Part shown: positions 572 through 50,740 of the stretch, piece by piece | Numbering within the stretch: position 1 is the stretch's first letter | How the letters are laid out: each line of letters opens with the position of its first letter | NCBI GenBank assembly: GCA_948514155.1 | Contig: CAOQYA010000004.1 | Span: 855-64,854 of the forward strand | DNA: 64,000 bases | Direction: 5' to 3' | From: an uncultured Eubacteriales bacterium | GTDB taxonomy: Bacteria > Bacillota > Clostridia > Christensenellales > UBA1242 | Notes under the pieces: generated by a model | Told to the model about the DNA's origin: nothing | The model's database searches: none | Seen by the model: only the letters and a program-made list of their open reading frames with translations | Made by a program: the position numbers and the translations under genes

Positions 572-600
572 AAAAACTTTGCGATTTGCAAAGTTTTTTT
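570..600. terminator. bidirectional rho-independent terminator
   Basis: Stem CTTTGC/GCAAAG flanked by an A-run and a T-run, between convergent rsmD and the GDPD gene. Confidence 0.7.
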
Positions 601-603
601 AAA

Positions 604-1332
604 TTAAATTTTAGGCTCGAAACCTTCGAATATGATGTTGTCGCAATATTTGACAACTCTTAAATATTCTTCTTGGCTTTTCACCGTCCAAGCAAGAAGC
701 GGAAGTTTTTTAAATTTCTTAACAAACCTATTTGGCAGCGTTTTTGCTTCATACATAATAAAGTCGGCAGCGGCCATTTTCTTTGTGAGCAGCATTCTTT
801 TCATGCCCCAGCGGGTGAGGAATTTCATTTTGACATTCTTTAAAAAGCCTGCAAGTTGGCCGCGAAGAAGGCTTGGCGCGTGCTCTTTGAAATATGAAAG
901 CACGAGTGGGTTGAAAGATGCAACTGCAACTTCGCCGCTGTATCTTTCGAGCGTGTCAATAACCTTTTGCTCCAGTTGTCCCACTTTGGAGTTGTTTTTA
1001 ACTTCAATAATAACAGGGGTTTGGCCGTCGATTGCCGAAAGTGCTTCCTCCAGTGTTGGAATTGTTTCCTTGCTGCCAGCAAGTTTGAGCATAGGCAGGT
1101 CTTGTTTAGTTAAAAATTTAAGATAGCCGTCATTGCCGGTCATTCTTGAAAGGCTTTCGTCGTGGAAAACAACAACAGTGCCGTCAGAGAGCATTTGCAC
1201 ATCAAGTTCAATCACATAGCCGTGAGCGATTGCGTTTTTAAAAGCCGAAATGGAATTTTCGGGAATTTCATTATTATGGAGGCCGCGGTGAGCGATAGGC
1301 GTTTCAACGAGCCAAGATTTGAAAAGGTCCAT
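604..1332 (-). CDS. glycerophosphodiester phosphodiesterase family protein
   Basis: 242-aa ORF with GDPD hallmarks: IAHRG, ENS...AF and ELDV near the N-terminus, then HD and EVK motifs. Confidence 0.8.
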   Translation of the reverse strand: MDLFKSWLVETPIAHRGLHNNEIPENSISAFKNAIAHGYVIELDVQMLSDGTVVVFHDESLSRMTGNDGYLKFLTKQDLPMLKLAGSKETIPTLEEALSAIDGQTPVIIEVKNNSKVGQLEQKVIDTLERYSGEVAVASFNPLVLSYFKEHAPSLLRGQLAGFLKNVKMKFLTRWGMKRMLLTKKMAAADFIMYEAKTLPNRFVKKFKKLPLLAWTVKSQEEYLRVVKYCDNIIFEGFEPKI

Positions 1333-1480
1333 ACTTTTTTCCTTAAGATTATTTTTATATAACCAGTATACTACTTTTTTTTACATTTAACAAAGGTTTT
1401 TGCGACAAAATTCAAATTTAAACATTTCCTTTGTCAAAATGATTGTTTTATCGCTAAATTTTGATATAATTGAGGAGGTT

Positions 1481-3280
1481 ATGAAAGAAAACATTAGGAA
1501 CTTTTGTATTATTGCACACATCGACCATGGAAAAAGCACGCTTGCTGACCGACTTATGGAGCAGACGAATTCTGTTGCGAAACGCGATATGCAGTCGCAA
1601 CTTCTTGACAGCATGGAACTTGAACGCGAAAAGGGAATAACAATCAAACTCACCCCAACTCGCATGAATTATTCATTTGAAGGCAAGGACTATGTGCTCA
1701 ATCTTATCGACACGCCGGGGCATGTTGACTTCACATATGAGGTGTCGCGCTCGCTTGCTGCATGCGAGGGTGCAATTCTTATTGTTGACGCTTCGCAAGG
1801 TGTGGAGGCTCAGACGCTTGCAAACGCATATCTTGCAATCGACGCAAACCTCGAGATTTTGCCGGTGATAAATAAAATAGACCTGCCTTCGGCGCGTCCC
1901 GACGAAGTTAAAAAGGAAATAGAGGATGTTGTGGGCTTGCCGGCCGAGGATGCGCCTTGCATTTCGGCAAAAGAAGGCACCAACATCGACGAGGTGCTCA
2001 GGCAAATTGTTTCCACTTTTCCTGCGCCTAAAGGCGACCAAAGTGCGCCGCTTAAGGGACTGATTTTTGACAGTTTTTACGATAACTTTAAGGGCGCAGT
2101 TTGTCTCGTTAGAATTTTTGATGGCGAGATTAAGGCGGGCGACCAAATTTTATTCATGCAGACTGGCAAGAGATTTGATGTGACAGAAGTGGGCATTTTT
2201 ACTCCGAAAATGGAGAGCGCAAATTCTCTTTCGGCGGGCGAAGTTGGATATGTAACAGCCTCAATTAAAAGCCTTTCCGAAGTCAATGTGGGCGACACTA
2301 TAACACATGTGGAGAGACCGACATTGGAGCCTATGCCTGGCTACAAAGTTGTGCAGCCGGTTGTTTATTGCGGAGTATTTGCAGTGGACGGGTCGAAATA
2401 TAACGAACTTAAGGAAGCACTGTTAAAACTTAAACTTAACGACGCCAGCCTTCAGTTTTCGCCCGAAGTTTCGCAGGCGCTCGGCTTTGGATTTAGATGT
2501 GGATTTTTGGGCCTATTGCACCTTGAAATTATCACCGAGCGCATCGAGCGCGAGTTTAATATCGATATTATCACCACCGCGCCGAGCGTGTCATATAAGG
2601 TGATAAAAACAAATGGCGACGAACTGGAAATTTCAAATCCGGCAAACTTACCTACGCCAGTTGAAATTGAAAAGATATATGAACCTATGCTTAAGGCAAG
2701 TATTTTCACGCCTCCAGCATATGTTGGTGCAATTATGCAGTTGTGTCAAGATAAGCGTGGCGTGTACAAGAACATGGTTTATCTTGATGCGTCTAGGGTG
2801 CGCCTTGAGTACAGCTTGCCGCTCGGCGAAATTATTTATGATTTCTTTGACAGGCTTAAATCGGCTACGAAAGGGTACGCAAGTTTTGACTACGAAATGG
2901 ACGGTTTTGCAGTAAGCAAACTTGTGAAGCTTGACATTCTTCTTAACGGCGAGAAGTGCGATGCGCTTTCTCTTATCGTGCATGAAGAGTCGGCATATTC
3001 GAGAGGAAGAGCAATTGCTGAGAAACTTAAAAAGATTATCCCTCGTCAACTTTTTGAAGTGCCTATTCAAGCCGCGATTGGAAACAAGATTATCGCAAGA
3101 GAAACGATTAGTGCGCTTAGAAAAGATGTGCTTGCAAAGTGCTATGGCGGTGATGTGACAAGAAAAAGAAAACTCCTCGAAAAGCAGAAGGAGGGTAAAA
3201 AACGAATGAGACAAATCGGGTCGGTGGAAATTCCTTCTGAAGCGTTTTTGTCAATTCTCAAATTGGATGACGAACAATGA
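1481..3280 (+). CDS. lepA: translation elongation factor 4 (LepA)
   Basis: GTPase motifs [17 protein letters not shown] and NKID plus the LepA C-terminal domain. ATG 1481 chosen because GAGGAGG lies 5 nt upstream; the track ORF starts at 1400. Confidence 0.95.
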
Positions 3281-4359
3281 TAGCCATATATGTGCATATT
3301 CCATTTTGTGAAAGTAAATGCGTTTATTGCGCATTTGCTTCTTTTTTGACGGGCGAGAAGGAAAGAGAAAAATATTTTGAAGTGTTAAAAAAAGAGATTG
3401 CGGCTTGCGATTTTGACGACCGCGATGTGCAGTCAATTTATTTCGGCGGAGGCACGCCGTCGTGCGTGAGTGAAGAGAAAATCGCAAGTGTTTTAGAGAC
3501 GATAAAAAAGCACTTTCGTGTGCTTGAAAATGCCGAAATAACAATCGAGTGTAACCCTTGCTCGGCGAGTGAAAAGAAACTTGCCTCTTACAAAAATATG
3601 GGAATAAATCGCATCAGTTTTGGAGTTCAGTCTTTGGACGAAAATATGCTTAAATTTTTAGGCAGACGGCACAATAAGTTGGGCGCGCTTGATGCGATAA
3701 AGCGCGCCACTGCCGCCGGCTTTGAGAACATTTCTGCCGACCTTCTTCTTGGTCTGCCGGCGGGGGATGTCAAGAAAGACGCTGCAAGGTTAATCAGAAA
3801 TGGCGTCAAACACATATCGGCATATATGCTTCAAATCGAAGAGAAGACTCCGCTTAAAAAAATGGTGGAGAGGGGAAAATTAAAATTGCCATCTGATGAT
3901 GAAACGGCCGATAATTATCAAAAATTGGCTTCATTTTTACAAAAAAAGGGCTTAAAGCGCTATGAAATCTCTAATTTTGCTCTTCCTAGCTATGAAAGTA
4001 GGCACAACTCGGCTTATTGGACGGGTGGGCAATATATCGGCTTTGGCCTTGGCGCACATTCCTTTGACGGCAAAAATAAACGCTGGGCAAACGCCTCAAA
4101 CTTTGAAGACTACTATGCTGGCCGCGTGCAAATTGAATCTCTATCAACGAGCGAGCGCGACGAAGAAATAATTATGCTTGGACTTAGGTGCTCGTTTGGA
4201 TTTAACATAAAAGAACTATCATTTGATATTTCAAAAAACAAAAGCTTCAACGAACTTTTGAAGCAAAACATTATCATTAAAAATGGTGATATAATCACCC
4301 TTAATTCCGATTTCTACGGCGTTTCCAACTCAGTGATTTTAAAACTTTTGGACGATTAA
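3277..4359 (+). CDS. hemW: radical SAM heme chaperone HemW (HemN-like)
   Basis: CxxxCxxC radical-SAM cluster ([10 protein letters not shown]) near the N-terminus, ~360 aa, ATGA overlap with lepA. lepA-hemN/W synteny is typical of Bacillota. Confidence 0.85.
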
Positions 4360-14921: not shown

Positions 14922-15269
14922 ATGGCAAATATTATTGACCAAATCGAGAAAGAGAACATGAAAGAAGCCGTTCCTGCTTTCAATATTGGTGACACTGTTA
15001 AAGTTGGCGTGCGCATCAAGGAAGGTGATAAGGAAAGAATTCAGGGCTTCGAAGGTGTTGTTATTGCAAGAAGAAATGGCGGCATCCGTGAAACTTTCAC
15101 CGTTAGAAAAATTTCAAACGGCGTTGGCGTGGAAAGAACTTTCCCTCTTCACTCTCCACTTGTTGCAGGAGTTGAAGTTACAAGAAAAGGAAAGCCAAGA
15201 AGAGCGAAACTTTACTATGTTCGCCAGCTTACTGGAAAAGCAGCCAAAATTAAATCTGCGGAAAACTAA
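14922..15269 (+). CDS. rplS: 50S ribosomal protein L19
   Basis: 115-aa ORF; F.IGDTV.V...[17 protein letters not shown] is canonical L19. Confidence 0.95.
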
Positions 15270-15274
15270 AATGC

Positions 15275-15303
15275 AAAATCTCGCAATTTGCGAGATTTTT
15301 TTA
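15275..15303 (+). terminator. rho-independent terminator
   Basis: Stem ATCTCGCA/TGCGAGAT followed by a T-run. Confidence 0.8.
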
Positions 15304-15326
15304 TTTTCCTTATGAAGGGCATTTGT

Positions 15327-15355
15327 TTGCTAAAATGTGACGAATTTGTTATAAT
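15327..15355 (+). promoter_or_regulatory. sigma-A-type promoter
   Basis: TTGCTA, a 17-nt spacer, then TATAAT preceded by TGT. Confidence 0.5.
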
Positions 15356-15387
15356 CAAAAAGTATTATTTTTCACCAAGGAGAAAAG

Positions 15388-16932
15388 ATGCTTTCAAAAA
15401 TTCACAGTTTTGGCTTACAGGGCATTGACGGCTTTACAGTCGAAGTGGAGACGGACATCAGCATTGGCCTTCCGCACTTTGAAATGGTGGGCTTAGCGGA
15501 TGCCGCGATTAAAGAGGCAAAAGAGCGTGTTCGCTCGGCTGTGCGCAACTCTGGATACAACTATCCGGTTAAGCGCATCACCGTTAATCTTGCGCCGGCC
15601 GATGTTAAGAAAGAAGGGCCGATGTATGACCTTGCCATTGCCATTGGCGTTATGTGCGCAGACACGGAGAGTGGCGTTCGAGGGCTGACCTCTGCAAAGG
15701 CGCGCAATTTTGTTATGCTGGGCGAACTTTCTTTGAATGGGGAGGTTAAATCGGTGCGCGGTGTGCTGCCTATTCTTATCTCCGCTCGCAAGGCAGGCTA
15801 CAAAAAATTTATCATTCCGGCGGCAAACGCCAATGAGGCAAGTTTTATCGAGGGGATAGAGGCATATGCCGTTCGCTCTTTGGGCGAGGCGGTGGAGTTT
15901 ATCGCGGGAAGTTTGCAACTGCAACCTGTGAAAGTTAATAGATTTGAAGCGGAACTGCGAGGCGCTAGCGACGCTCTTGATTTTAAATATGTTAAAGGCC
16001 AGGCACGGGCAAAGCGCGCCCTAGAAATTGCTGCGGCGGGCGGACATAATGTGCTCATGATTGGGCCACCGGGCAGCGGAAAGAGCATGCTTGCAAAGTG
16101 TTTTCCGTCCATTTTGCCGGACATGACCTTTGAGGAGGCGCTTGAGGTGACGAAAATTCACTCGATAGCCGGCGAACTTGATTTCAAAAAGGGCATTGTG
16201 GGCGTGAGACCATTCAGAACGCCGCATCATTCAGCGTCGGCGGTGAGTTTGACCGGCGGCGGTGCGCACAGCAAGCCGGGCGAGATTTCGCTTGCGCACA
16301 ACGGAGTGCTCTATCTTGACGAGATGCCCGAATACTCCAGGCATGCGCTTGAAATGTTGAGGCAGCCGCTTGAGGACGGCACAATCACAGTTGCAAGAAC
16401 TGCGCTGACTGTCACATATCCGGCGAACTTCACGCTTATTGCGTCCATGAACCCATGCCCATGCGGCAACTATGGCTCGCGCGATAAGGAGTGCAAATGC
16501 TCGCCGTCGCAGATACATAAATACCTCTCGCGCATTTCGGGACCGATTTTGGACAGAATTGACATTCATGTTGAAGTTGACAATGTCACCTTCGACGATT
16601 TAAGGTCGCAAATTCAAGAAGAGTGCTCCAGCGAAATTAAAAAGCGGGTGGACAGTGCTCGCGAAAAGCAACTTGAACGATTTAGGGGCATGAAAAACTT
16701 TTCAAATGCAAAAATGAGCGTGCCTGCAACTAAGAAATTCTGCTTACTTTCAAGAGAGAGCGAAGAACTTCTCAAGAGCGCTTTTGAAACCCTTAAACTT
16801 TCGGCGCGCGCTCATGACCGCATATTAAAAGTTTCGCGCACCATTGCCGACCTTGAAGGTGAGACAGAAATTTTACCAGAGCACATTGCCGAGGCAATAG
16901 GCTACAGAACGCTTGACAGAAAATATTTATAG
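15388..16932 (+). CDS. comM: YifB/ComM family Mg-chelatase-like AAA+ ATPase
   Basis: Lon-like N-terminal domain and AAA+ core (GPPGSGKSM, LDEMPE) with a Cys-rich insert (CPCG...C.C). 514 aa. Confidence 0.9.
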   Translation: MLSKIHSFGLQGIDGFTVEVETDISIGLPHFEMVGLADAAIKEAKERVRSAVRNSGYNYPVKRITVNLAPADVKKEGPMYDLAIAIGVMCADTESGVRGLTSAKARNFVMLGELSLNGEVKSVRGVLPILISARKAGYKKFIIPAANANEASFIEGIEAYAVRSLGEAVEFIAGSLQLQPVKVNRFEAELRGASDALDFKYVKGQARAKRALEIAAAGGHNVLMIGPPGSGKSMLAKCFPSILPDMTFEEALEVTKIHSIAGELDFKKGIVGVRPFRTPHHSASAVSLTGGGAHSKPGEISLAHNGVLYLDEMPEYSRHALEMLRQPLEDGTITVARTALTVTYPANFTLIASMNPCPCGNYGSRDKECKCSPSQIHKYLSRISGPILDRIDIHVEVDNVTFDDLRSQIQEECSSEIKKRVDSAREKQLERFRGMKNFSNAKMSVPATKKFCLLSRESEELLKSAFETLKLSARAHDRILKVSRTIADLEGETEILPEHIAEAIGYRTLDRKYL

Positions 16933-39906: not shown

Positions 39907-40875
39907 ATGAAAAAGACTTTTTCGGCCGTCATGATTATTATCGGCACGGTGATTGGCTCCGGCTTTGCCAGCGGCAAGGAAATTGCCGTCTATTTTTCGC
40001 GCTTTGGCTCGGCGTCTTACTTTTTCATTGCACTGACCTTCTTTCTCTTTTTTGGATTGATATATTCTTTTTTCTCTTTTGGCGAAAGGGCGCTGGACAA
40101 ACTTGCCTCTTCTAAACTCTTTTCGGTGATTTGCATAATAATATCGCTGATTTTCACCGCATCTATGTTCGCCGGAACAATCAATGTGCTTCCAGAAAAC
40201 ATTTTTGTGAGAATTGCATTCGGAGCGGCGCTTATCGGCGTTTGCTGCTATGTGGCGCGGCGGGGCATTCCATTTCTATCGAAACTTAACAACTTTCTTA
40301 TTCCGCTCACTCTTGTGAGCATGCTTGTTGTGCTTCTTTCCAATTTTTCCCTGCCAAAAGCTGGGCTTGCGGGGCAGAATGCGTTTGCCGGGCTGTTTTT
40401 CACCCTTCTTTACTCTGTTTTAAACTTTTCCATGAGCAGCATTGTGATTGCAAAATCGGGAATTGGCATGAGCAAAAAAGAAAAAGTGTGGGCTAGTTTA
40501 ATTTCCAGCCTCACACTTTGCTCTTTTCTTTTGCTGACCAATTTTGTCCTTTTGTCGCATCCTGAAAGTATGCAGGAAGCGATGCCACTTGTATTTATCG
40601 CCAGCGGAGTTTGCGGCCACTTAATTAGATTTGTGGTCTTTTCGGGCTGCATAACAACGCTTTTCTCTTTGGTGTTCACAACTTCCGAAAGCCTTAAAAA
40701 ACTGGGATGCAAGGGCTGGGGAATATATCTAATCGCGATATTTTTTCCCTGCATTTGCTCGCTGTTCGGCTTCGGGACTATCGTTAGTTTCTTGTATCCG
40801 TTTGCAAGTGTGCTTGGGATATTTCTTTTGCTTATTTTGTTTTTCTTGCCGTCAAGGGCGGCAGACAGCTCCTAG
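39907..40875 (+). CDS. YkvI family membrane protein (putative transporter)
   Basis: The N-terminal IGTVIGSGFASGKEI motif is typical of YkvI-like proteins; polytopic. Confidence 0.65.
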   Translation: MKKTFSAVMIIIGTVIGSGFASGKEIAVYFSRFGSASYFFIALTFFLFFGLIYSFFSFGERALDKLASSKLFSVICIIISLIFTASMFAGTINVLPENIFVRIAFGAALIGVCCYVARRGIPFLSKLNNFLIPLTLVSMLVVLLSNFSLPKAGLAGQNAFAGLFFTLLYSVLNFSMSSIVIAKSGIGMSKKEKVWASLISSLTLCSFLLLTNFVLLSHPESMQEAMPLVFIASGVCGHLIRFVVFSGCITTLFSLVFTTSESLKKLGCKGWGIYLIAIFFPCICSLFGFGTIVSFLYPFASVLGIFLLLILFFLPSRAADSS

Positions 40876-41699
40876 CGGGAGTGCCATTTTTCTACAAGGC
40901 AAACCACCATATACATGAGTGCGGCAAGCACGCACAAAAGCACGGTGCTGGTCATGACTAGGTCAATTTTGAAGACCTGGCTGCCATACACAATCAGATA
41001 TCCAAGTCCGGCACTGCTGGAAAGATATTCGCCCATGATTGTGCCGACCCACGCCATGCCTACATTTATTTTCAGCACGGAGATAAATTCAGCCGTTGCG
41101 TTGGGGAGAATGAGTTTCCAGAAAATTTGGAACTTGTTTGCGTGCATAGATTTCATGAGTTGAATTTTATCGGCGTCGCACGAGTTAAAGGCGTTGAGCA
41201 TGGTTATCGTTGTTAAGATTATACATATAAGCACACACATCACTATAATTGCGCTCATTCCCGAACCTACCCAAAGGATAATGATAGGCCCGAGTGCAAT
41301 TTTAGGAAGGGAGTTCAAAACAACTATATATGGCTCTAAAACTCGCCTTAATCTTTTATTCCACCACAGGAGAATTGCGATAAGCGTGCCACCAATAGTG
41401 GCCACCGCAAAACCTATGATAGTTTCAAGCAGCGTTATGCCAATATGTTTCCAAATTGTCCCGCCTTGCACCAGACTTACGAACATATTGAATATTCTTG
41501 ACGGGCTGCTAACGAAAAATGGGTCAATCACTCTTGTTGCGGTCAGCAGTTCCCAAAGTCCGATGAATAACACTAAGATAAGAATTTGAAAGATTATAAC
41601 AAATATTTTATCATTCCTCAGCCTTCTCAAATATCGTTGATGAGCCTTGGAATATGGTGCTGCCTTCGAGATTTTAGGTTTTAGTATTTTCTTTTTCAT
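40872..41699 (-). CDS. ABC transporter permease (NitT/TauT-like)
   Basis: Polytopic with an EAA-like loop (MKSMHANKFQIFWKLILP). Overlaps the upstream ATPase gene. Confidence 0.8.
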   Translation of the reverse strand: MKKKILKPKISKAAPYSKAHQRYLRRLRNDKIFVIIFQILILVLFIGLWELLTATRVIDPFFVSSPSRIFNMFVSLVQGGTIWKHIGITLLETIIGFAVATIGGTLIAILLWWNKRLRRVLEPYIVVLNSLPKIALGPIIILWVGSGMSAIIVMCVLICIILTTITMLNAFNSCDADKIQLMKSMHANKFQIFWKLILPNATAEFISVLKINVGMAWVGTIMGEYLSSSAGLGYLIVYGSQVFKIDLVMTSTVLLCVLAALMYMVVCLVEKWHSR

Positions 41700-42453
41700 T
41701 CGTAAGTTTCTTCCAAATCAGGTCGAAAAGCGCGCCAAAAGTTGGGTCTTCTCGTCTTGAAAGTGGAGTTTTTCCATTTAAATTTAAGTTTTGCACAAAT
41801 TTGACGGAAGCGGGACGCGATGAAAGCACTATGACTTTATCGGACATGGACAGGGCTTCCGAGATGTCGTGGGTCACAAGAATGGCCGTCTTTTTCTCGC
41901 TTTTGATTATCTCGTGCACATCGTCGCACACTTTTAATCTTGTTTGAAAATCGAGGGCGGAAAAGGGCTCGTCGAGAAGCAGAAGCTTCGGCTCCATAAC
42001 AAGCGTCCTTATCAGTGCAACCCTTTGACGCATGCCGCCGCTAAGTGAGCGGGGTTTTGCAGAGATAAAATCAAATAGGTCATACTTTTTAAGTAGCTCG
42101 CGGGCAAACTCTTTTTTTTGGTCAGCATCCTTGGGCTTTGTCAGTTCAATGCCCAGTGTCACATTCTGCCAAATAGTTCGCCAATCGAAAAGATGGTCGC
42201 GCTGAAACATGTAGCCAATGCGGTCATCGTGTTTTACGATAGGCTTGCCGGCGAGAAGTATCTGGCCGGAACTGTTTTCCAAAAGCCCGGCAGTTAAGGA
42301 CAAAATTGTAGTTTTGCCGCAGCCACTTGGCCCAACAATAGAAGCAAATTCTTCGTCGTCAACAACAAAGTTGAGGTCGCGCAGTGCGTGTATCTCCTCT
42401 TTTTTTGTTTGATAGAAAAAATTTACATTTTTGAACTCAAGCATGGCGCTCAT
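41674..42453 (-). CDS. ABC transporter ATP-binding protein (NitT/TauT-like)
   Basis: Walker A GPSGCGKTT, signature LSGGMRQR, Walker B LLLLDEP. Confidence 0.9.
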   Translation of the reverse strand: MSAMLEFKNVNFFYQTKKEEIHALRDLNFVVDDEEFASIVGPSGCGKTTILSLTAGLLENSSGQILLAGKPIVKHDDRIGYMFQRDHLFDWRTIWQNVTLGIELTKPKDADQKKEFARELLKKYDLFDFISAKPRSLSGGMRQRVALIRTLVMEPKLLLLDEPFSALDFQTRLKVCDDVHEIIKSEKKTAILVTHDISEALSMSDKVIVLSSRPASVKFVQNLNLNGKTPLSRREDPTFGALFDLIWKKLTNEKENTKT

Positions 42454-42534
42454 AAATTACCTCTACATAATCATTCTACTTTGCTTGATGCGAATGTGTG
42501 ATAAATTGGCTGAAAAATTTTGTGGCACTCCGGC

Positions 42535-42563
42535 TTGATATTTGGCTGCTTGGGCTTTAAACT
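42535..42563 (+). promoter_or_regulatory. candidate sigma-A-type promoter of the phage-like module
   Basis: TTGATA, a 17-nt spacer, then TAAACT. A second candidate extended -10 (GTGTGATAAATT, 42496-42507) lies upstream. Confidence 0.35.
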
Positions 42564-42593
42564 TTGGCTATCATTTGCAAGGAGGAGTGTGCT

Positions 42594-42911
42594 TTGAGCG
42601 AGTTAAGCGAGGAAAAACTTAAAAAGGCGCTGCTTAAAAAGGCGCTCGGCTATGAAACTAAAGAGCAAGTTTGCGAATACTCAATCGGCGAAAACGGAGA
42701 GGCGGTGCTTTCCAAGAAGAAGGTCACAAAAAAACAGATGTCGCCAGATATGAGTGCCCTTAAACTTTTGCTTGAACGCTTCTACGCTGAGATTGAACCC
42801 GAAAAGATGACCGACGAAGAACTTGAGAAAGAGCGCACAAGGCTTTTGCAACTTTTAAAAGAGGAGGAAGAAAATGCAAATAGAGAAAGTGAGCAAAGTA
42901 ACCAAGTGTGA
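42594..42911 (+). CDS. small-terminase-core-like protein lacking an N-terminal HTH
   Basis: TTG 42594 lies 6 nt after GGAGGAG. ALGYETKEQV...KKVTKKQMSPDMSALKLLLER resembles the oligomerisation core of SF6/SPP1-type TerS; the C-terminus is an acidic coiled coil. Confidence 0.4.
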   Translation: MSELSEEKLKKALLKKALGYETKEQVCEYSIGENGEAVLSKKKVTKKQMSPDMSALKLLLERFYAEIEPEKMTDEELEKERTRLLQLLKEEEENANRESEQSNQV

Positions 42912-43095
42912 TTTTGTGGGCTGCAGCAATCTTGCGGACTACTCATTCAGCACCAAAGGAATTTTGAAGCGGGAACTTGCTTTTTGCCAGGAATGCCTGA
43001 CGGGGATGTATGAAGAAATCGGCCGCCTGCAAGTGCCTAAAGCGGTGGAAGCGCCCTTTAAACTTAAATCACGAATTAAAAAGGAGAAAAAATGA
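42874..43095 (+). CDS. small zinc-ribbon-like protein
   Basis: 73 aa with strong AGGAGG. Cys pairs Cx4C and CxxC (CDFVGC ... CQEC) and a basic tail. Confidence 0.55.
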   Translation: MQIEKVSKVTKCDFVGCSNLADYSFSTKGILKRELAFCQECLTGMYEEIGRLQVPKAVEAPFKLKSRIKKEKK

Positions 43096-44966
43096 AAAAG
43101 ATAACAAAAAATGAGGAAGAGATAGTTAAGTTTGTGCTTGACGACTTTACTTCTCGTCAATATGCGAGAAAGAGTTTTGAGACACAATGGCAAATGAACA
43201 TGAACTTTTACATGGGCAATCAGTTCTGCGACATTGGCTATGGCGGAGAAATTGAAGACCTTGACAAACAATATTTCTGGCAGGAGAGGGAGATTTTTAA
43301 TCACATTGCGCCAATTGTGGATGTGCGACTTGCAAAACTTGGCAAAGTCCGCCCTAAGACATCCATTTTGCCAGCCTCTAATGACGAAAGAGATGTTTAC
43401 GCTGCAAAGGTCTCCAAAAAGATACTCGACAGCGTTTCAAACAAACTTGCACTTTCCAAAAAAATTAATGACGCAATGAACTGGAGCGAAATTTGCGGAA
43501 CAAGTTTCTATAAAGTCACATGGAACCCATGTCTTGGACAAGTTGTTGCAAAAGAGGAAGACGGGAAAGAGGTCAGAAGCGGTGAGGTGGAAGTCACCGT
43601 CTGCTCGCCTTTTGAAATTTTTCCAGACAGTTTCACATGCGAAAGCCTTGACGCCTGCCAGAGCATTATTCATGCGCGTGCGCTGGATGTTGAAAAAATT
43701 AAAAGCACATATGGCATTGAAGTTGAGGGGCAGGAGATAAATGTTTTTTCGCTTGACTCAACAAGTGTTGGCCTTGGCGGCCTCGGCTATTCATCTTCCG
43801 CGCCTAAGATTTGCCACGGAGTTAAGAAGTCGAGCGCGCTTGTTATTGAAAGATACGAAAAGCCGAGCCCTTCGCGGCCAAACGGTCGCCTGACAATTGT
43901 TGTCGGGGGCAGACTCTTCTTTGACGGCGACCTGCCATATGCAGTCGGCAAAGATGGGGTGAGAGATTTTCCGTTTGTTAAGCAGGTGTCGTTAAATCAA
44001 GTTGCATCTTTCTGGGGTGCGAGCGTGATTGACAGGCTTATTCCTGTTCAGCGCGCATTTAATGCCGTGAAGAACAGAAAACATGAATTCATGAACCGAT
44101 TGACAATGGGCGTGCTTAAAGTTGAAGACGGCTCGATTGATATTGACAACCTCGAAGAAGAAGGACTTTGCCCGGGCAAGATATTAGTTTATCGCCAAGG
44201 CTCAATCGCTCCTGAATTTTTATCGGGAGACAACATCTCTTCAAGTTTCAGCGACGAAGAGGAAAAACTGATAAGCGAGTTTCAAACTATAAGCGGCGCA
44301 AATGAGATGCTTAACAATGACAACATCTCCACAAAGATGTCGGGCGTGGCACTGGAAGTTATGGTGGAGCAGGACGAACTTAAACTTAACAACACCGCCG
44401 ACAACATCAAACAGAGCGTGATTGCAATTTCACAAATGGTGCTTAGGCTTTACAAGCAATTTGCAATCATTCCGCGTCTTGCAAAGATTGTTGGCGACAA
44501 CGGCGAAGTGGAACTTTTCTATTTCAACTCCAGCGACATTTCCAGCGACGACATTCAACTTGAAGCGCAAAACGAACTTGGCGAAAGCCTTGCTCAGCGC
44601 AGACAAATGGTCTTTGACCTCATTGATGCCGGTCTTCTAAACGACACCGATAAGGGCATGTCAAACAAAATGAAAGTTAAAGCACTCGACCTTCTTGGCT
44701 TCGGAATTTGGGAGAACGCGCAAGATACGAACGAACTTCACCTTAAGAAAGCGGAGAACGAGAACCTTAAACTCACATCCGGCGGAAAGGTGAAAGTGCT
44801 TGAAATTGACAATCACGAACTGCACATTGACCGTCACATTGCCTACATGCTTAGCGGCGACTACGAGAAAAAAGCCGCCATTAACCCAGCGATTGAAGAA
44901 AGATTTCTTTCGCACATTCGTGAGCACAAAAAACTTGAAAACAGCGAAAATAACGAAAAAAATTAA
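43092..44966 (+). CDS. phage portal protein (putative)
   Basis: 624 aa. The WQMNMNFYMGNQ motif near the N-terminus, the size and the position directly upstream of scaffold and capsid genes all fit a portal. No Walker A, so it is not TerL. Confidence 0.65.
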   Translation: MKKITKNEEEIVKFVLDDFTSRQYARKSFETQWQMNMNFYMGNQFCDIGYGGEIEDLDKQYFWQEREIFNHIAPIVDVRLAKLGKVRPKTSILPASNDERDVYAAKVSKKILDSVSNKLALSKKINDAMNWSEICGTSFYKVTWNPCLGQVVAKEEDGKEVRSGEVEVTVCSPFEIFPDSFTCESLDACQSIIHARALDVEKIKSTYGIEVEGQEINVFSLDSTSVGLGGLGYSSSAPKICHGVKKSSALVIERYEKPSPSRPNGRLTIVVGGRLFFDGDLPYAVGKDGVRDFPFVKQVSLNQVASFWGASVIDRLIPVQRAFNAVKNRKHEFMNRLTMGVLKVEDGSIDIDNLEEEGLCPGKILVYRQGSIAPEFLSGDNISSSFSDEEEKLISEFQTISGANEMLNNDNISTKMSGVALEVMVEQDELKLNNTADNIKQSVIAISQMVLRLYKQFAIIPRLAKIVGDNGEVELFYFNSSDISSDDIQLEAQNELGESLAQRRQMVFDLIDAGLLNDTDKGMSNKMKVKALDLLGFGIWENAQDTNELHLKKAENENLKLTSGGKVKVLEIDNHELHIDRHIAYMLSGDYEKKAAINPAIEERFLSHIREHKKLENSENNEKN

Positions 44967-45022
44967 AAAAATCACAAAAAAACAGCAATTTTAAATAAAT
45001 TTTCTTAAATTTAGGAGGAAAT

Positions 45023-45634
45023 ATGGAAGAGAAAATAATCGAGGAACAACCAGCGGCAGAGCCGGCAGAGGCTTTAGATAAAGCAAATGAGAGTGTCGAG
45101 AGCGCAGCGGGCTCCTCGAATGAAAATGGGAACTTAGGCAAGTTTAAAACGCCGGAGGCTCTTTATCAAGCATACAAGGCGCTTGAGGCCGAGTTCACCA
45201 GAAAAAGCCAAAGGCTGAGCGAACTGGAAAAAGACAAAACGGAGAAAGCAACCGTCGATGAAAAACGCGTGGATGACGAACTTTCTTCCTTCCTTTCGAA
45301 ACGAAGCGAGGCAAGTCCTTATGCCGACAAACTTAAATCTAAAAGTTTGCAAGAGGGCGGGAGAGTTGATTTTGAAGAAATGCTGGCTGCAATCTTACTT
45401 GAAAATTTAGAGACAGGCTCTTCAAAACTCGACAACCCAATTATAACAAAATATGTTTTTCAAGACGAAGAACTAAAAAATCATGTTATCGAAAATTACA
45501 TGAAAGAACTTAAAACGGGAATGCCTCCATTTGTTATCAGTGGCGACAAAGGCGAAAAAGTGACCGGTCAAAAGCCGGCCACTCCGGCGTCGCTTGCAGA
45601 AGCAAAAAAGATTGTGGAGGACATGTTCAGTTAA
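45023..45634 (+). CDS. phage scaffolding protein (DUF4355-like)
   Basis: Acidic helical 203-aa protein. GKFKTPEALYQAYKALEAEFTRKSQRLSELE resembles scaffold proteins encoded just before HK97-fold capsid genes. Confidence 0.6.
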   Translation: MEEKIIEEQPAAEPAEALDKANESVESAAGSSNENGNLGKFKTPEALYQAYKALEAEFTRKSQRLSELEKDKTEKATVDEKRVDDELSSFLSKRSEASPYADKLKSKSLQEGGRVDFEEMLAAILLENLETGSSKLDNPIITKYVFQDEELKNHVIENYMKELKTGMPPFVISGDKGEKVTGQKPATPASLAEAKKIVEDMFS

Positions 45635-45651
45635 AATTTTAGGAGGAAAAA

Positions 45652-46878
45652 ATGATTACATTACAAAGTGCGGAAAATGCACTCAAATCTGTTTATCTGG
45701 GTGTTATTGCAAATCAGCTTAACATTGCATCAAACCCACTTCTCACAAAAATTAAGAGAACAAACAAAGATGTTTGGGGAAAGGAAGTTATTAAACTTGC
45801 TCCAATAGGCATCAACGGCGGAATTGGAGCCGGCACAGAGACGGGAACTCTTCCTGCTGCTGTGGGCAACACATATGCTCAATTTAAGGCAACACTTAAA
45901 AACCTTTATGGAAGAATTGAATTGTCTGACAAAGCAATTCGCGCTTCACAAAACAGTGCAGGCGCTTTTGTTAACCTTCTTGCTGACGAAATGGAAAGCC
46001 TTGTTAAAGCAAGCACTTTCAACCTTGGAAGAATGCTTTATGGCGACGGAACAGGAATTGTTGCAAGAGCAATCGCTAACACCGACGACGGCATGATACA
46101 ATGCTCGAAAGTTAACACACTTGTTGAGGGAATGCTTATCGATTTCTGGAATGATCAGGGACAGCAGGAACTTATCAAATGCAAAGTTTTATATGTTGAC
46201 AGATTAAACAAGAAAATCAAGATTGACAAAAACTTTAATGTAAAAGAAGAAGGCAGCAACATTGTTGTGCAAGGCTCAAGAAACAATGAAATCACCGGCC
46301 TTGGCGCAATCTTCTCTGACTCTGAGACCCTTTATGGACTTACAAGAGCGGAGCACAAATGGCTTTCTCCATACAAATCAACAACAAGCACCGAGATTTC
46401 TGACAGCCTCATTCAAACTGCGATTGACTTCCTTGACGAGAACGCTGACTCTAAAATCAACTTTATCGCTTGCTCAAGCCCAGTGAGAAGAGCATATCAG
46501 GCATATCTCAACGCTTACAGATCCAATGTTGACATCATGAACCTTGAAGGCGGCTTCAAAGCAATTTCTTACAACGGAATTCCACTTGTTGCTGATAGAT
46601 TTGTTGATGAAGACACAATGTATCTTCTTAACACTAACGACTTTGTTATGCACGAACTTTGCGACTGGAAATGGATCGAAAATCAAGACGGCGGCGTGCT
46701 GAAACAAAACTCGAACAACGCAACTTACACTGCAACACTTGTTAAATATGCCGAACTTATCTGCGATAAGCCAAACGGTCAGGCAAAAATCAGCGGAATT
46801 AAATCTACTGTAACAAACCCTTTTGCTTCAAATGTTACAGTTAATGTTCCAAGCACAACACCTGAAGTGACTGAGTAA
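45652..46878 (+). CDS. phage major capsid protein (HK97-fold type)
   Basis: 408 aa. Blocks such as LYGRIELSDKAIRASQ, AFVNLLADEMESL and FNLGRMLYGDGTG are typical of Firmicute phage MCPs. Strong SD. Confidence 0.75.
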   Translation: MITLQSAENALKSVYLGVIANQLNIASNPLLTKIKRTNKDVWGKEVIKLAPIGINGGIGAGTETGTLPAAVGNTYAQFKATLKNLYGRIELSDKAIRASQNSAGAFVNLLADEMESLVKASTFNLGRMLYGDGTGIVARAIANTDDGMIQCSKVNTLVEGMLIDFWNDQGQQELIKCKVLYVDRLNKKIKIDKNFNVKEEGSNIVVQGSRNNEITGLGAIFSDSETLYGLTRAEHKWLSPYKSTTSTEISDSLIQTAIDFLDENADSKINFIACSSPVRRAYQAYLNAYRSNVDIMNLEGGFKAISYNGIPLVADRFVDEDTMYLLNTNDFVMHELCDWKWIENQDGGVLKQNSNNATYTATLVKYAELICDKPNGQAKISGIKSTVTNPFASNVTVNVPSTTPEVTE

Positions 46879-46886
46879 AAACAAAG

Positions 46887-46917
46887 AAGGGGCTAAAATT
46901 TAGGCCCCTTTACTTTT
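46887..46917 (+). terminator. hairpin / partial terminator after the capsid gene
   Basis: Stem AAGGGGC/GCCCCTT with a 10-nt loop, followed by TACTTTT. It may attenuate or stabilise the transcript. Confidence 0.4.
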
Positions 46918-46927
46918 AGGAGAAAAA

Positions 46928-47242
46928 ATGAAAGACCAAATTTTGCTTGAGGGCGACCCATTTTATATCGCGGAGCGAATAAAAGAGATTGACGAAAACT
47001 ATTTTTTGGTGTTTAACAAAAAAAGAGGCGTTTTCGAATTGCATAATTCTTCGCAGCGTTCGTCCACTTTCGCACTTACAATTCCATATGACACGCTTGA
47101 CGAGAGGGCTATCTTTCTCGCTCGCAAGACCAGGCGGGAGAACATCGATAAATTGATTGAAGAGATGGACAAAGAAAACGAACTGCGCACCAAAAACCTT
47201 GTCAAGAGGGCGGCCGAGCAAATACAAGAGGTGATTGAATGA
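46928..47242 (+). CDS. hypothetical phage-module protein (104 aa)
   Basis: Strong SD (AGGAGAAAAAATG) and a 4-nt overlap with the next gene. No family recognised. Confidence 0.55.
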   Translation: MKDQILLEGDPFYIAERIKEIDENYFLVFNKKRGVFELHNSSQRSSTFALTIPYDTLDERAIFLARKTRRENIDKLIEEMDKENELRTKNLVKRAAEQIQEVIE

Positions 47243-47784
47243 AAATTAACGAAGTAATCAAACTAAGTTGCGATTTTTTGGGGCTGGGAGAGTTGAAAAG
47301 CGAACTTGATGCAGGAGGCGAAATTGAGAACGAAAAACTCAGCAGGCTGCTTACATGCTTAAATCTTGCATATGAGGAGATTGTCACCGAATATCTTCCC
47401 ATTCTCACAACAGAAAAAGTGGGAGTTTTAGGCGGCAAAGTTCTTTATTCTTCGCTTTCGAAGCCTATCAGCGGCATATCTTGCGTCAAAAACGAAAAAG
47501 GCGAGGAGATTTGTTATCAAGTTTCAGCCGACCATATCGACATCGACGCAAAAAGTGCGGAGATAACTTACCAGATTATGCCAGAAAAATGCGAGTTTGG
47601 GGAGGAAGTGAATGTGCTTTTTCCAGAAAGACTGCTAGCATATGGCACCGCCAGGGAATATCTGTTTATCGAAGGAATGTCGGACGAGGCTATTTTATAT
47701 GAAAAGCGTTTCAAGGAAGCACTTGTGAATTTCGTTCGCAAGAAATCGATTGCTCGCCTTCCAAAAAGAACATGGAAGGTGTAA
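47239..47784 (+). CDS. putative head-tail adaptor (P22 gp4 / T7 gp11-sized)
   Basis: 181 aa, placed after the capsid gene and before a ~490-aa protein, which parallels podovirus head-completion order. Assigned by size and synteny only. Confidence 0.35.
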   Translation: MKINEVIKLSCDFLGLGELKSELDAGGEIENEKLSRLLTCLNLAYEEIVTEYLPILTTEKVGVLGGKVLYSSLSKPISGISCVKNEKGEEICYQVSADHIDIDAKSAEITYQIMPEKCEFGEEVNVLFPERLLAYGTAREYLFIEGMSDEAILYEKRFKEALVNFVRKKSIARLPKRTWKV

Positions 47785-47794
47785 GGAGGCAAAT

Positions 47795-49270
47795 ATGTTT
47801 AATAAAAAAGATTTTGCCACAAGAAAAAGTAAATCGATAAAGGTCAGACTTGATAGATTTGACGAGTGGAAGGAGGGCGCCGACGGGGCGACCGTCAAAG
47901 TGGGGCAGACTGTTGATAGTTACAACTTTGCAACTAAGACGGGCGCGCTCACGGCGGGGCTGGGACTGAAAAAGCCCACCCTTCCAAGAAAGCAAACTGA
48001 AAACGAAATGTTTGAGTTTGATGTGGACGCCACCGAGGTGCGTGCGCTTTATCCCTTCACCACCTATGACAATCTGACCGAAACGGACAGATATTATCTT
48101 TTCTATCTCGACACCGGCAATCAACTTTGCTTCTTTGACCTTCTGGGCACAAAATCTATGCGCCGAACGGAAGTGTCATTCAACGAAATTCCTAACGCCG
48201 CTGCATTTAAAATCAACAGCGATGTTGACACCGTTTTCTTTTCTTCGCCGTCTGATAAGACGCTTGGCTACAACAACGCCGGGCCGGCTTACTATGACAA
48301 CATTCCAAAGTTCACTTCCGGATGCTGGCACGGGCCATATCTGTTTATGGTCACTGTGGGCGATACAAACAAACTTATCTACAGCAAGAAAAGGGTGGAC
48401 ATTTGGAACTACGACAATGTTGAGGAGGTTCCTTTGCCATATGACATCCGCGGGGGACTGACCAAACTTGTGTCGCTGCGTGACAGCATGTATCTTTTCA
48501 GAAACTACGGCATAACGAGGCTCAATCTCTATTCGCTCAAGGCGGAACTGTCATTCACAAACATATTTGAGTCGCATTCTTACATCTATCCAAGGTCGAT
48601 TTCGATATATGGCGACAAAATTGTCTTTCTCACCGACGAAGGTCTCTTTTCGGTGGAGGGCAATGCTGTTAACAAAATTAAAATGCCAATTGAAGACAAT
48701 ATTATGCCGGCAAATCACGACTGCATTGGCGTTTGCTTTAACGGAAAATACTATCTTGCTTGCAAATATGACTTTAAAGACGACGATAAAATCGGCGAGG
48801 AGATAAACGGCTGCAAGAACAATGCGCTTATCGAGTTTGACCTTGAAAACAAGTTGTTTGAAATCTGCCGCGGCGTGGATATTAGCGATATGACCGTTAT
48901 TCAAACCCCAAAAGCGAGAAAACTTTTTGCCTCCGTTCGTGGAGAGCACAAGGCGCATCTTGGTGAGGTCGCGCATAACGGCATGATTTTCGATAAACCT
49001 TTGCATAAAGTGTGGAAGGTCGAAAATCTCGATTTTGGCTTCGGCGGCAGGGACAAATGCGTGACCGATATCACAATTAAGCCGGGTGCTTCGGGGAAAT
49101 TCACCATTGCCTCGGATGTTGATAGTCAAACAATTGATGTTCCGCTCTCGACACGCACTCAGCGCCTGCGCACCCGAGTGTTTGGCAAGACTTTCAAAAT
49201 TTTGATAGAGTCGGACGAGCCTTGTCCTGTTATTTCCTGTCCCGAACTTAGTGTTAAGGTTCTTTTATGA
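47795..49270 (+). CDS. putative tail hub/nozzle-like structural protein (P22 gp10-sized)
   Basis: 491 aa from ATG 47795, with AAGGAGG upstream. Beta-rich sequence with repeated hydrophobic/aromatic strands. Assigned by size and synteny only. Confidence 0.35.
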   Translation: MFNKKDFATRKSKSIKVRLDRFDEWKEGADGATVKVGQTVDSYNFATKTGALTAGLGLKKPTLPRKQTENEMFEFDVDATEVRALYPFTTYDNLTETDRYYLFYLDTGNQLCFFDLLGTKSMRRTEVSFNEIPNAAAFKINSDVDTVFFSSPSDKTLGYNNAGPAYYDNIPKFTSGCWHGPYLFMVTVGDTNKLIYSKKRVDIWNYDNVEEVPLPYDIRGGLTKLVSLRDSMYLFRNYGITRLNLYSLKAELSFTNIFESHSYIYPRSISIYGDKIVFLTDEGLFSVEGNAVNKIKMPIEDNIMPANHDCIGVCFNGKYYLACKYDFKDDDKIGEEINGCKNNALIEFDLENKLFEICRGVDISDMTVIQTPKARKLFASVRGEHKAHLGEVAHNGMIFDKPLHKVWKVENLDFGFGGRDKCVTDITIKPGASGKFTIASDVDSQTIDVPLSTRTQRLRTRVFGKTFKILIESDEPCPVISCPELSVKVLL

Positions 49271-49434
49271 AAATTTTTGATAAAAGTTATTCGGCTTTTA
49301 TATCAAGGCTTTCAAAGAAAGGAGAAAAGCGGGAAATGAAAAATTTAATCGAAGAGATTTTATCTGATAACAATCAAATGGCAAAAAATGGGCAGAGTGA
49401 AGACTGCATTCTGCCGACAGGAAAGAAAGTTTGA
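49267..49434 (+). CDS. small hypothetical protein (55 aa; not in ORF track)
   Basis: Hand-translated. ATGA overlap with the upstream stop and a TGATG overlap with the downstream start. An alternative internal start at 49336 follows AGGAGAAAAG. Confidence 0.4.
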   Translation: MKIFDKSYSAFISRLSKKGEKREMKNLIEEILSDNNQMAKNGQSEDCILPTGKKV

Positions 49435-49682
49435 TGTGGCAAGAAATTGTGAGCGTGATAATCAGCAACGGAATTTTTGCGGTGCTGTTCGTGCTCTTGT
49501 TTTGCTATCAACTTAAGGACAGCAAAAGACGGGAAGAGAAATATCAAAAGACGATTGAAGATTTGACCGAACACATAGGCGTGATTGATAAAATTAAGGA
49601 CGATGTGGAATATCTTAAGGACGCATTAACTCCAAAAAGAAGGAGGAAAAATGAAACTGAAAAACTTAATTCGCTCTTATAG
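49434..49682 (+). CDS. BhlA/UviB family holin-like protein
   Basis: NGIFAVLFVLLFCYQLKDSKRREEKY closely resembles the BhlA signature (GPFAVLF..LLFYV.K.SKERE). One TM segment plus a coiled coil. Confidence 0.7.
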   Translation: MWQEIVSVIISNGIFAVLFVLLFCYQLKDSKRREEKYQKTIEDLTEHIGVIDKIKDDVEYLKDALTPKRRRKNETEKLNSLL

Positions 49683-49929
49683 TTTTTGGACGACGCTTGC
49701 CGGTGCACTTTGCATTTTAATGAGCGCGCTTGGCAGAGCCTTCAGCTTTAAGGTGGAAGAAAAAATCATATCAGACATAGTTATGGCCATTGCCGGAGTG
49801 CTTGTGGCTGTTGGCATTGTTTCAATGCCTGCAAAAAAGGAGGAAGGGGAAAATGCTTCTTCCGATTTGCCGCAAGAGGCGCAGGAGAATTCTGACGCAC
49901 AAGACGAAGAAGGCGCGGACCAAAAATAG
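49651..49929 (+). CDS. two-TM holin-like membrane protein
   Basis: 92 aa with AAGGAGG upstream. Two hydrophobic helices, then an acidic tail. Confidence 0.5.
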   Translation: MKLKNLIRSYSFWTTLAGALCILMSALGRAFSFKVEEKIISDIVMAIAGVLVAVGIVSMPAKKEEGENASSDLPQEAQENSDAQDEEGADQK

Positions 49930-49933
49930 CAAC

Positions 49934-49962
49934 AAAAAAGGGGGCAATCGCCCTCTTTTTTA
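49934..49962 (+). terminator. rho-independent terminator
   Basis: Stem AAAGGGGGC/GCCCTCTTT (one G-U pair) followed by a T-run. Confidence 0.7.
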
Positions 49963-49965
49963 TTA

Positions 49966-49994
49966 TTGACTTTTGCTGCGAAATGTGATAGACT
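49966..49994 (+). promoter_or_regulatory. sigma-A-type promoter
   Basis: TTGACT, a 17-nt spacer, then TAGACT preceded by TGTGA. Confidence 0.5.
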
Positions 49995-50013
49995 TAAAAA
50001 GTAGGAGAGAAAC

Positions 50014-50661
50014 ATGGAAAAAGTGTTAAACAAGAAATTTTTTGATAATATTTTGGAAGTTTCCGCAGCCGGTCAGGACGGCATTGTGCAATTGGTGCTT
50101 AAAAACGGGCTCGTTAAGAACTTTGATTTGAAACTTATGCAAGAGACGGACAGAGAATTTAAAAAAGATCCAATCATTTGGCAGATGCTTGAGACAGCGG
50201 CCGGAGCAGCGGCTGGCAGAAGTAGAATGAATTTTGAAGATAAAGTCGAGTTCTTGGGCGACGACGCACTTCTGCACATTAAAGCCACAGATTTTAATCA
50301 CCCTGTAGATTTTAAAGGAACATACAATGTTTCAAATGCTACTCATATTCCGGTTGGAAGAAAAGACGGCACAAGAGTCTCGCACCCAGCCCTATATGCA
50401 ATCGCTTTTTCGGCATATATTGAGGGCGCAGCAAACGGCATCAAAATGTTCGATAGCGAACTTTTACTTGATAAAGATTGTGCCTCTGACCTTGTGAGTG
50501 CATATAAAACCTTCAATTCTTTAGTTCTCGGGCATGACCTTGAAGACAGTCAAGAATTTGCAAGACTTTTCAAAAATAAAGCCGACGGCGAAACGCAAAG
50601 AGTGCTTTCAAAGCAAAAAGAAGAGAGCCAAATTGATAATATTCTATCAAACTTGAAATAA
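50014..50661 (+). CDS. hypothetical protein (215 aa), its own transcription unit at the right edge of the phage-like module
   Basis: Strong SD (AGGAGAG), own promoter and terminator. No TM segment and no lysin or regulator motif recognised. Confidence 0.55.
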   Translation: MEKVLNKKFFDNILEVSAAGQDGIVQLVLKNGLVKNFDLKLMQETDREFKKDPIIWQMLETAAGAAAGRSRMNFEDKVEFLGDDALLHIKATDFNHPVDFKGTYNVSNATHIPVGRKDGTRVSHPALYAIAFSAYIEGAANGIKMFDSELLLDKDCASDLVSAYKTFNSLVLGHDLEDSQEFARLFKNKADGETQRVLSKQKEESQIDNILSNLK

Positions 50662-50688
50662 AAAAACGGGGAAGCCCCGTTTTTTTTG
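50660..50688 (+). terminator. rho-independent terminator
   Basis: Stem CGGGG/CCCCG followed by T8. Confidence 0.75.
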
Positions 50689-50740
50689 TGCAAATGATTT
50701 TTGAAAAAAGTCGGGAAGATCCCGGCTTTGATAAACTAAA

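Follow-up and report, generated by a model that had tools for sequence, protein, structure and literature searches.

A podovirus-derived structural and lysis operon fixed in Christensenellales-like Clostridia, probably one half of a gene transfer agent-like system

Results

An intact podovirus-type structural and lysis operon upstream of rpsT

The 64-kb window analysed here (the whole stretch of 64,000 nucleotides from contig CAOQYA010000004.1, assembly GCA_948514155.1, of an uncultured Eubacteriales bacterium) contains a phage-like locus of 12 plus-strand open reading frames (ORFs) at 42594-50661; eleven are co-oriented and intact (p1 to p11, 42594-49929) and the twelfth (p12) is transcribed separately. 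Independent gene calls on public contigs with identical proteins agree with the protein lengths in amino acids (aa) listed below, and the ORF junctions overlap at 42874/42911, 43092/43095, 47239/47242, 49267/49270 and 49431/49434, as an initial annotation made from the sequence alone had it. That annotation also saw an AGGAG-type Shine-Dalgarno sequence before nearly every ORF, which holds for ten of the 12 but is weak at p9 and p10. The start of p1 was corrected to a TTG at 42594.

42523..42563, plus strand: operon promoter, the composite family motif TGGCACT-N5-TTGATA-N17-TAAACT (TTGATA-17-TAAACT in the sigma-70 scan)
42594..42911, plus strand: p1, 105 aa, possible protein of the small terminase subunit (TerS) type without DNA-binding domain (phrog_309, TerS, 6e-4 only)
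42874..43095, plus strand: p2, 73 aa, Cys4 zinc-ribbon-like (cysteine pattern only)
43092..44966, plus strand: portal, P22-like, 624 aa (PF16510, P22_portal, 3e-13; phrog_156, 2e-34)
45023..45634, plus strand: scaffold-like protein, 203 aa (position only; phages Brad and Shocker also have an ORF between portal and capsid)
45652..46878, plus strand: major capsid protein, podovirus type, 408 aa (NCBIfam NF033394, capsid_maj_Podo, 3.5e-83; phrog_14242, 3e-53)
46928..47242, plus strand: p6, 104 aa, head-completion or connector candidate (conserved in the family)
47239..47784, plus strand: p7, 181 aa, probable portal-nozzle adaptor, compare T7 gp11 (position)
47795..49270, plus strand: tail nozzle (tail hub), 491 aa, beta-propeller plus beta-sandwich (AlphaFold2 and Foldseek)
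49267..49434, plus strand: p9, 55 aa, poorly conserved small ORF (ORF and gene call)
49434..49682, plus strand: BhlA-family holin, 82 aa (PF10960, 1e-16; phrog_2429, 1.5e-13)
49651..49929, plus strand: second holin, 92 aa, two transmembrane segments (phrog_297, 4.5e-8; Phage_holin_1, 0.0011)
49934..49959, no strand assigned: hairpin terminator closing the p1-p11 operon (stem-loop AAAAAAGGGGGCAATCGCCCTCTTTTTT)
49966-49994, plus strand: p12's own promoter, TTGACT-17-TAGACT
50014..50661, plus strand: p12, 215 aa, hypervariable slot (ORF and own promoter)
50653..50693, no strand assigned: bidirectional terminator between p12 and rpsT (inverted repeat I23)

The terminator and the second promoter agree with the earlier view that the 215-aa protein is transcribed on its own. 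Composition is host-like, as had been judged by eye (GC 43.3% in the module versus 43.4% in the window), and the sequence TGTGATA is indeed common in the window, with 16 sites against four expected, two of them upstream of p1 (42497) and p12 (49984).

Profile searches upheld the portal and capsid calls, the capsid proving to be of podovirus type, as well as both holin calls. Over 93% of its length the portal shares 22% identity with Jasminevirus portals, and relatives of the capsid protein form 281 clusters at 50% identity (E<1e-30). The 491-aa protein found no sequence match in profile searches, a PDB profile search included; its AlphaFold2 model (predicted local distance difference test score, pLDDT, 79.4; predicted template modelling score, pTM, 0.82) matched podovirus tail nozzles in a Foldseek search of the PDB, with phage VP1 8zkk_O first (E 9e-17, TM-score 0.69) and then Pa223, SU10, GP4 and T7 gp12, in agreement with its earlier designation as a tail hub. 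Portal, capsid and nozzle are thus those of a P22/T7-like podovirus head and tail, to which the adaptor p7 is assigned by position only: five of 23 p7 orthologues matched phrog_2941 ('virion structural protein', best E 0.004), a PDB profile search returned nothing for p7, and its single-sequence AlphaFold2 model was unusable (pLDDT 41).

Three further calls stood in part. The TerS-like nature of p1 has the phrog_309 match listed above, but a profile built from 29 family sequences found no match in Pfam or the PDB; p2 shows the cysteine pattern of a zinc ribbon but matched no family in Pfam, PHROGs or NCBIfam; and the scaffold-like protein is in the expected place but had no hidden Markov model match in the same three databases. 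No match was found for p6 in Pfam, PHROGs or the PDB, nor for p12 in the Pfam, PHROGs and NCBIfam scans, and tblastn found no p9 in related loci.

The absences reported by the initial annotation were also confirmed. No Walker A motif is present in p1 to p12; scans of the 12 proteins against Pfam, PHROGs and NCBIfam recognised no integrase, replication gene, fibre or lysin; no tRNA was found; and a repeat search found no att-like flanking direct repeat. The flanks are housekeeping genes, with dprA, topA, hslUV, ileS and an ABC importer to the left and rpsT, gpr, murI, groES/EL, murG and parE/parC to the right.

The operon is inherited vertically under purifying selection

Relatives were sought with the capsid protein as query and one genome per species, which gave 21 loci with capsids 56-75% identical, all from uncultured Clostridia. 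In 14 of these species-level genomes the same 11 genes follow the same ABC ATPase gene in the same order, and in seven of the 14 rpsT-gpr-murI-groEL also lies downstream. Every gene had full-length matches in all related loci, and no fuller prophage occupies the same site among the relatives examined.

The ratio of nonsynonymous to synonymous substitution rates (dN/dS), measured in non-saturated pairs, was 0.02-0.03 for the portal, 0.05-0.06 for the capsid protein, 0.04-0.08 for the nozzle, about 0.01 for p2, 0.06-0.23 for p1, 0.12-0.23 for the scaffold-like protein, 0.06-0.15 for both p6 and p7, 0-0.07 for the BhlA holin and 0-0.13 for the holins overall. Flank genes gave 0.02-0.14, the module genes being as strongly constrained. 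p1 is conserved across the family, and p2 retains 29-77% identity. Synonymous divergence (dS) is equal between module and flanks, and the pairwise distances of portal and capsid track those of the ABC genes (Spearman 0.85, Mantel p 2e-4); the module is therefore a vertically inherited, functional gene set. The comparison argues strongly for the domesticated particle-forming module that had been among the first proposals, on the basis of synteny at one site, co-divergence with the flanks and low dN/dS, and it leaves no sign of the relaxed selection of a randomly decaying prophage.

Relatives carry a terminase, next to the operon or apart from it

In a distant locus (L019; L numbers denote related loci) a 472-aa large terminase subunit (TerL; Terminase_6N/6C) is encoded directly upstream of p1. 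Relatives of this TerL occur in at least 577 species genomes, all of them Clostridia, and fall into at least 4785 clusters when grouped at 90% identity; 239 related contigs are found in IMG/VR. Where carriers are named they belong to Christensenellaceae or Candidatus Onthoplasma, both of the order Christensenellales. None of the related loci examined had an integrase gene or genes for replication or lysogeny.

The common layout is contiguous: x198/x165, a 257-aa reverse-strand gene, TerL, p1 as its 3' neighbour, p2, portal, scaffold, capsid, p6, p7 and nozzle, with holins after the nozzle in most loci. This layout is ancestral, since Jasminevirus and Shocker share the gene order from terminase to capsid. 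The x165 product has weak matches to phage activators of the ArpU/RinA type (phrog_248, 5e-6; TIGR01637, 0.015), and x165/x198 is a putative ArpU/RinA-like activator. A sigma factor gene beside contiguous loci was considered as part of the element and rejected, being the host's SigG. Some genomes have a fast-evolving gene between TerL and p1 whose 770-810-aa product combines a signal peptide, a GLUG-like beta-helix and a C-terminal membrane anchor.

In the split layout a first block runs from lexA through x165, the 257-aa gene, TerL, the big gene and an NMT1-type binding-protein gene to rsmD, GDPD, lepA and hemN, and the p1-p11 operon lies away from it. In four assemblies a TerL-less operon and a TerL locus are on different contigs:

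JAGASX: operon L022, TerL L104
CAZVYB: operon L016, TerL L134
CADBOH: operon L017, TerL L137
JAGAKV: operon L015, TerL L142

Few proteins of the system are as well conserved as the separated TerLs (mean column identity 77%), whose Walker A (GGNRSGKTECG) and Walker B motifs are intact. By its gene content the window locus would represent the split, derived state. The proposal that it is half of a split prophage was accordingly right as to the half, TerL being on another contig in four relatives, but what has split is a domesticated cluster and not a prophage. Since relatives carry TerL upstream of p1 or on another contig, the lack of a packaging ATPase is a property of the locus and is not established for the system.

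The two blocks share a promoter motif

A composite motif, TG[GT]CA[GC][TA]-N5-6-TTG[AC] with a -10 box about 17 nucleotides downstream, was located at 61 distinct sites across 2.46 Mb of related loci; shuffled sequence gave 0-3. Of these sites, 34 precede x165/x198 of the TerL locus, 15 precede p1 (14 split loci and one contiguous locus, L095) and four precede lexA. The sole intergenic copy in the window is the operon promoter, 30 nucleotides before p1, and throughout the window's clade the motif upstream of p1 has been kept while the remaining intergenic sequence diverged. The p1 operon would seem to have gained the control element of the x165 gene on splitting, and from the x165-type motif on the split operon we argue that both halves are still co-expressed.

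Sigma-54 was rejected as the reader of the motif on spacing and for want of GC at -12, and direct LexA control was likewise rejected, as AGAAC-N5-GTTCT is found in lexA promoters and is absent from the x165 and p1 promoters. The lexA gene lies 1-2 kb upstream of x165 in split loci. Its promoters carry TGGCAC-N6-TTG (L137 2007, L141 1659, L143 2909, L150 3035, L174 1725), and the AGAAC-N5-GTTCT palindrome just past their -10 box is probably the LexA box of the lineage.

Comparison with known systems

The closest counterpart is FpGTA of Faecalibacterium prausnitzii, a podovirus-like gene transfer agent (GTA) whose head operon spans 10.5 kb and whose tail and lysis operon spans 5.5 kb; it was validated by electron microscopy, proteomics and 8.5-kb packaged DNA (Borodovich et al., Nat Commun 2026; PMC12946183). 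Like the window system it is a chromosomal, non-replicating podovirus-like cluster of gut Clostridia that occupies more than one locus; it encodes TerL, portal, a scaffold-region protein, capsid and conserved hypothetical proteins, and forms holin-linked particles with about 8.5 kb of host DNA. FpGTA has TerL in the head operon and holin and endolysin in operon II, whereas in the window the head operon itself contains the holins and would be separated from TerL, and an endolysin is not seen. The FpGTA capsid is annotated as N4-gp56 family, with a gene for a Prp-like protease beside it (PMC12946183, supplement file 4); the window capsid matches only capsid_maj_Podo (NF033394) and has no Prp gene. 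Because the capsid family differs and the Prp gene is absent, the two are set apart by their annotations as systems of the same kind that are not orthologous.

The alphaproteobacterial GTAs (RcGTA, CcGTA and BaGTA; viriforms) are also domesticated, vertically inherited structural clusters under purifying selection, without integration or replication genes, with dispersed loci under a common regulator and a TerS without clear DNA-binding domain; they differ in their siphovirus-like HK97-type head-tail cluster with TerL and tail genes, belong to another phylum and have no sequence relationship to the window locus. As in a GTA, the window cluster is chromosomal, phage-derived and structural, without integration, replication or lysogeny genes in Pfam, PHROGs and NCBIfam, and across 14 genomes it shows vertical inheritance and purifying selection, with dN/dS of 0.02-0.23.

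The closest cultured phages are the Jasminevirus phages of Arthrobacter (Brad, Adat and Jasmine) and Microbacterium phage Shocker, with 22% identity in the portal and 25-27% in the capsid. Their genes run in the order of the family, with a terminase followed by two small ORFs, portal, an ORF in the scaffold position and capsid, but these are lytic podoviruses of Actinobacteria with complete genomes of 45 kb that include lysin, tail and replication genes. Among GenBank phages only distant portal and capsid relatives, 17-27% identical, were found, and a TerL above 49% identity did not turn up in any complete phage in IMG/VR.

Capsid-forming phage-inducible chromosomal islands (cf-PICIs) likewise carry capsid, portal and connector genes without tail fibres, but they are mobile elements that encode an integrase, modules for replication and regulation, and a terminase of their own. 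The window locus has no integrase or att site and no replication module, and it is syntenic across species and co-diverges with its flanks; on these grounds, and for lack of mobility, the earlier suggestion of a satellite that borrows TerL and tails is not upheld. A 2026 preprint describes compact candidate clusters in murine gut Clostridia, none of them Christensenellales, and likens them to cf-PICIs (PMC13371034). PBSX of Bacillus subtilis is, like the window locus, a defective phage fixed in a Firmicutes chromosome. Its particles take up random host DNA and leave the cell by holin-mediated lysis, but PBSX is myovirus-like, about 28 kb long, has terminase, tail, lysin and repressor in one locus and is unrelated in sequence. 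We did not find the family described in the literature searched; it is a new family of a known, probably GTA-like kind.

A variable slot and other genes around the element

Between the operon terminator and rpsT, where p12 lies, relatives carry a rapidly replaced gene (L013 14456-14890, L014 14453-14896, L007 14549-15214, L008 14556-15233, L009 5220-5888, L005 14433-14873), and its alleles have only a short hydrophobic motif in common. The slot genes of L013 and L014 are 55% identical, with dS 1.0 and dN/dS 0.3, and their neighbours have dN 0.01 and dS 0.15-0.2; this disparity in dS suggests that the slot gene is replaced as an allele by recombination, and it could be a specificity or immunity determinant.

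Some lineages (L085, L086, L092, L101 and L127) have two conserved genes between nozzle and holins (e.g. L086 17095-18949), for proteins of about 380 aa and 233-333 aa (the latter matching DUF7934), which are absent from the window; neither matched a tail fibre or lysin, and both are candidates for the missing tail parts. A tandem pair of capsid genes, 42-50% identical to the query capsids, is present in L094 (14838 and 16018), L103, L114, L124 and L130. A distant compact variant (L151, L152) has a TerL 43-45% identical, a sigma-factor-like gene, a short portal of 350 aa, capsid, a p6-like gene and BhlA, and could represent a further domesticated lineage. A ToxN type III toxin gene (15241-15807; PF13958, 4e-46) closely follows the element in L019.

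Beside p1 in the window are ABC permease and ATPase genes without a binding-protein gene (40872-42453, minus strand), and in split relatives an NMT1-type binding-protein gene stands beside the TerL block (e.g. L142 10116-11114, minus strand). Each half of the phage-derived cluster may thus adjoin one half of a broken transporter operon.

Discussion

We consider it probable, with room for doubt, that 42523-49959 represents the structural and lysis genes of an ancient short-tailed phage, now fixed and vertically inherited in the chromosomes of Christensenellales-like Clostridia, and that its closest kind is the GTA (viriform). The locus is probably the structural and lysis half of a domesticated GTA-like system. 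In such a system, induction in part of the population would lead a common regulator to switch on both loci; procapsids would be assembled from portal, scaffold and capsid protein; and TerL supplied in trans, perhaps with p1 as a TerS without DNA-binding domain, would fill them by headful packaging, probably with host DNA. The portal would then be sealed by p6, p7 and the nozzle, and the particles released by BhlA and the second holin. As no wall hydrolase was found at the locus, it would have to be encoded elsewhere.

The window begins (44-4359; compared with L153, L170 and L173) with rsmD-GDPD-lepA-hemN, which is the exact block that follows the TerL locus in split relatives. In the same species the 10 kb upstream of rsmD (L153 1-10000) hold, in place of the block of TerL, big gene and NMT1-type gene, glnS, a radical-SAM gene, a glycosyltransferase gene and genes for two giant GLUG-repeat proteins of 780-843 aa and 1064 aa. 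The walk beyond the 1064-aa neighbour halted where the contig ends inside the next gene, two metagenome scans found nothing upstream of the 780-aa gene, and the 10 kb to the right of the window contain no TerL. Four TerL clusters guessed to belong to the window's genome were rejected, all being from other species. The TerL-adjacent 770-810-aa protein was also considered as a homologue of the giant upstream proteins, with which it shares only GLUG-type repeats (hhalign probabilities 82-91%). Close to the 5' end of the gene for the 843-aa repeat protein, where the contig of L172 (1-70) terminates, is a homopolymer of 11 G that could be phase-variable or mark a break in the assembly.

Several results weigh against a GTA-like system with its terminase elsewhere. 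Neither TerL nor an NMT1-type gene is present in the 10 kb upstream, where split relatives hold TerL; tblastn with three family TerLs found no match in the 64-kb window; no TerL was tied to the clade of the 11 closest genomes (L004-L014) among the matches listed; the four operon and TerL pairs come from metagenome-assembled genomes, in which mis-binning is possible; and the whole family lacks a recognisable tail fibre, receptor-binding protein or endolysin.

These absences of TerL, taken with the strong purifying selection that still acts on the structural genes of the clade, are what favours a true loss of the terminase in the window's lineage, the operon being kept perhaps to pirate the terminase of a co-resident phage, as a non-mobile capsid-forming satellite would, or to release empty or protein-loaded particles. 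We regard this as unlikely, since the searches in the clade covered the best 80 loci or used query-specific peptide patterns, so that a TerL is easily missed; the promoter motif and p1, the neighbour of TerL in contiguous relatives, are still conserved in the clade; and for the four more distant operons without TerL, one was found elsewhere. That the clade lost its terminase block and has long kept the portal-capsid-nozzle-holin operon under strong purifying selection seems to us a little more doubtful again, though if it were true it would be the more remarkable result: a chromosomally fixed capsid system that borrows the motor of unrelated resident phages or does not package DNA. Given that the structural genes are constrained and that p1 and the promoter motif have been kept, we argue instead that a TerL is probably present in the window's genome, and the missing terminase is best explained by a split architecture.

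A PBSX-like defective phage, selected as a killing or lysis device for competition or programmed lysis and not for gene transfer, would account for the two holins in the operon, and the hypervariable 3' gene and the fast-evolving surface protein beside TerL in relatives follow the pattern of specificity and immunity loci; but capsid, portal and the highly conserved TerL of relatives together imply DNA packaging, and no contractile tail or bacteriocin-like effector is present, so that we judge this reading improbable. Far less credible still is a functionless cryptic prophage remnant, or repeated integration of a mobile phage or satellite at this one site. Phage-like gene content speaks for it, as does the flagging of such fragments by phage-detection tools, to which the 239 IMG/VR contigs attest; yet all genes are intact in every locus with dN/dS of 0.02-0.2, the module has the dS of its flanks and distances that correlate with theirs, integrase, att repeats, tRNA and replication genes are all lacking, and no complete phage genome with a TerL above the 49% mark turned up in IMG/VR or among GenBank phages.

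GTAs have long been known almost only from Alphaproteobacteria. Sequencing of virus-like particles has since shown that in gut Clostridia, Christensenellaceae included, whole genomes are commonly packaged in a GTA-like manner, with a locus identified and validated only for Faecalibacterium (2026; PMC12946183); in the same work Christensenellaceae genomes showed GTA-like packaging in nanopore data, with no locus named (PMC12946183). The family described here is separate, podovirus-derived, spread over hundreds of Christensenellales species and conserved like a housekeeping operon, and it may explain the packaging reported for Christensenellaceae. Its series of layouts, contiguous, interrupted by a surface gene, and split with a re-created promoter motif, is useful for studying how domesticated viral clusters break up and remain co-regulated. 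For the organisms themselves, the family is a concrete genetic candidate for gene flow that has been observed and not explained in a heritable, health-associated gut lineage.

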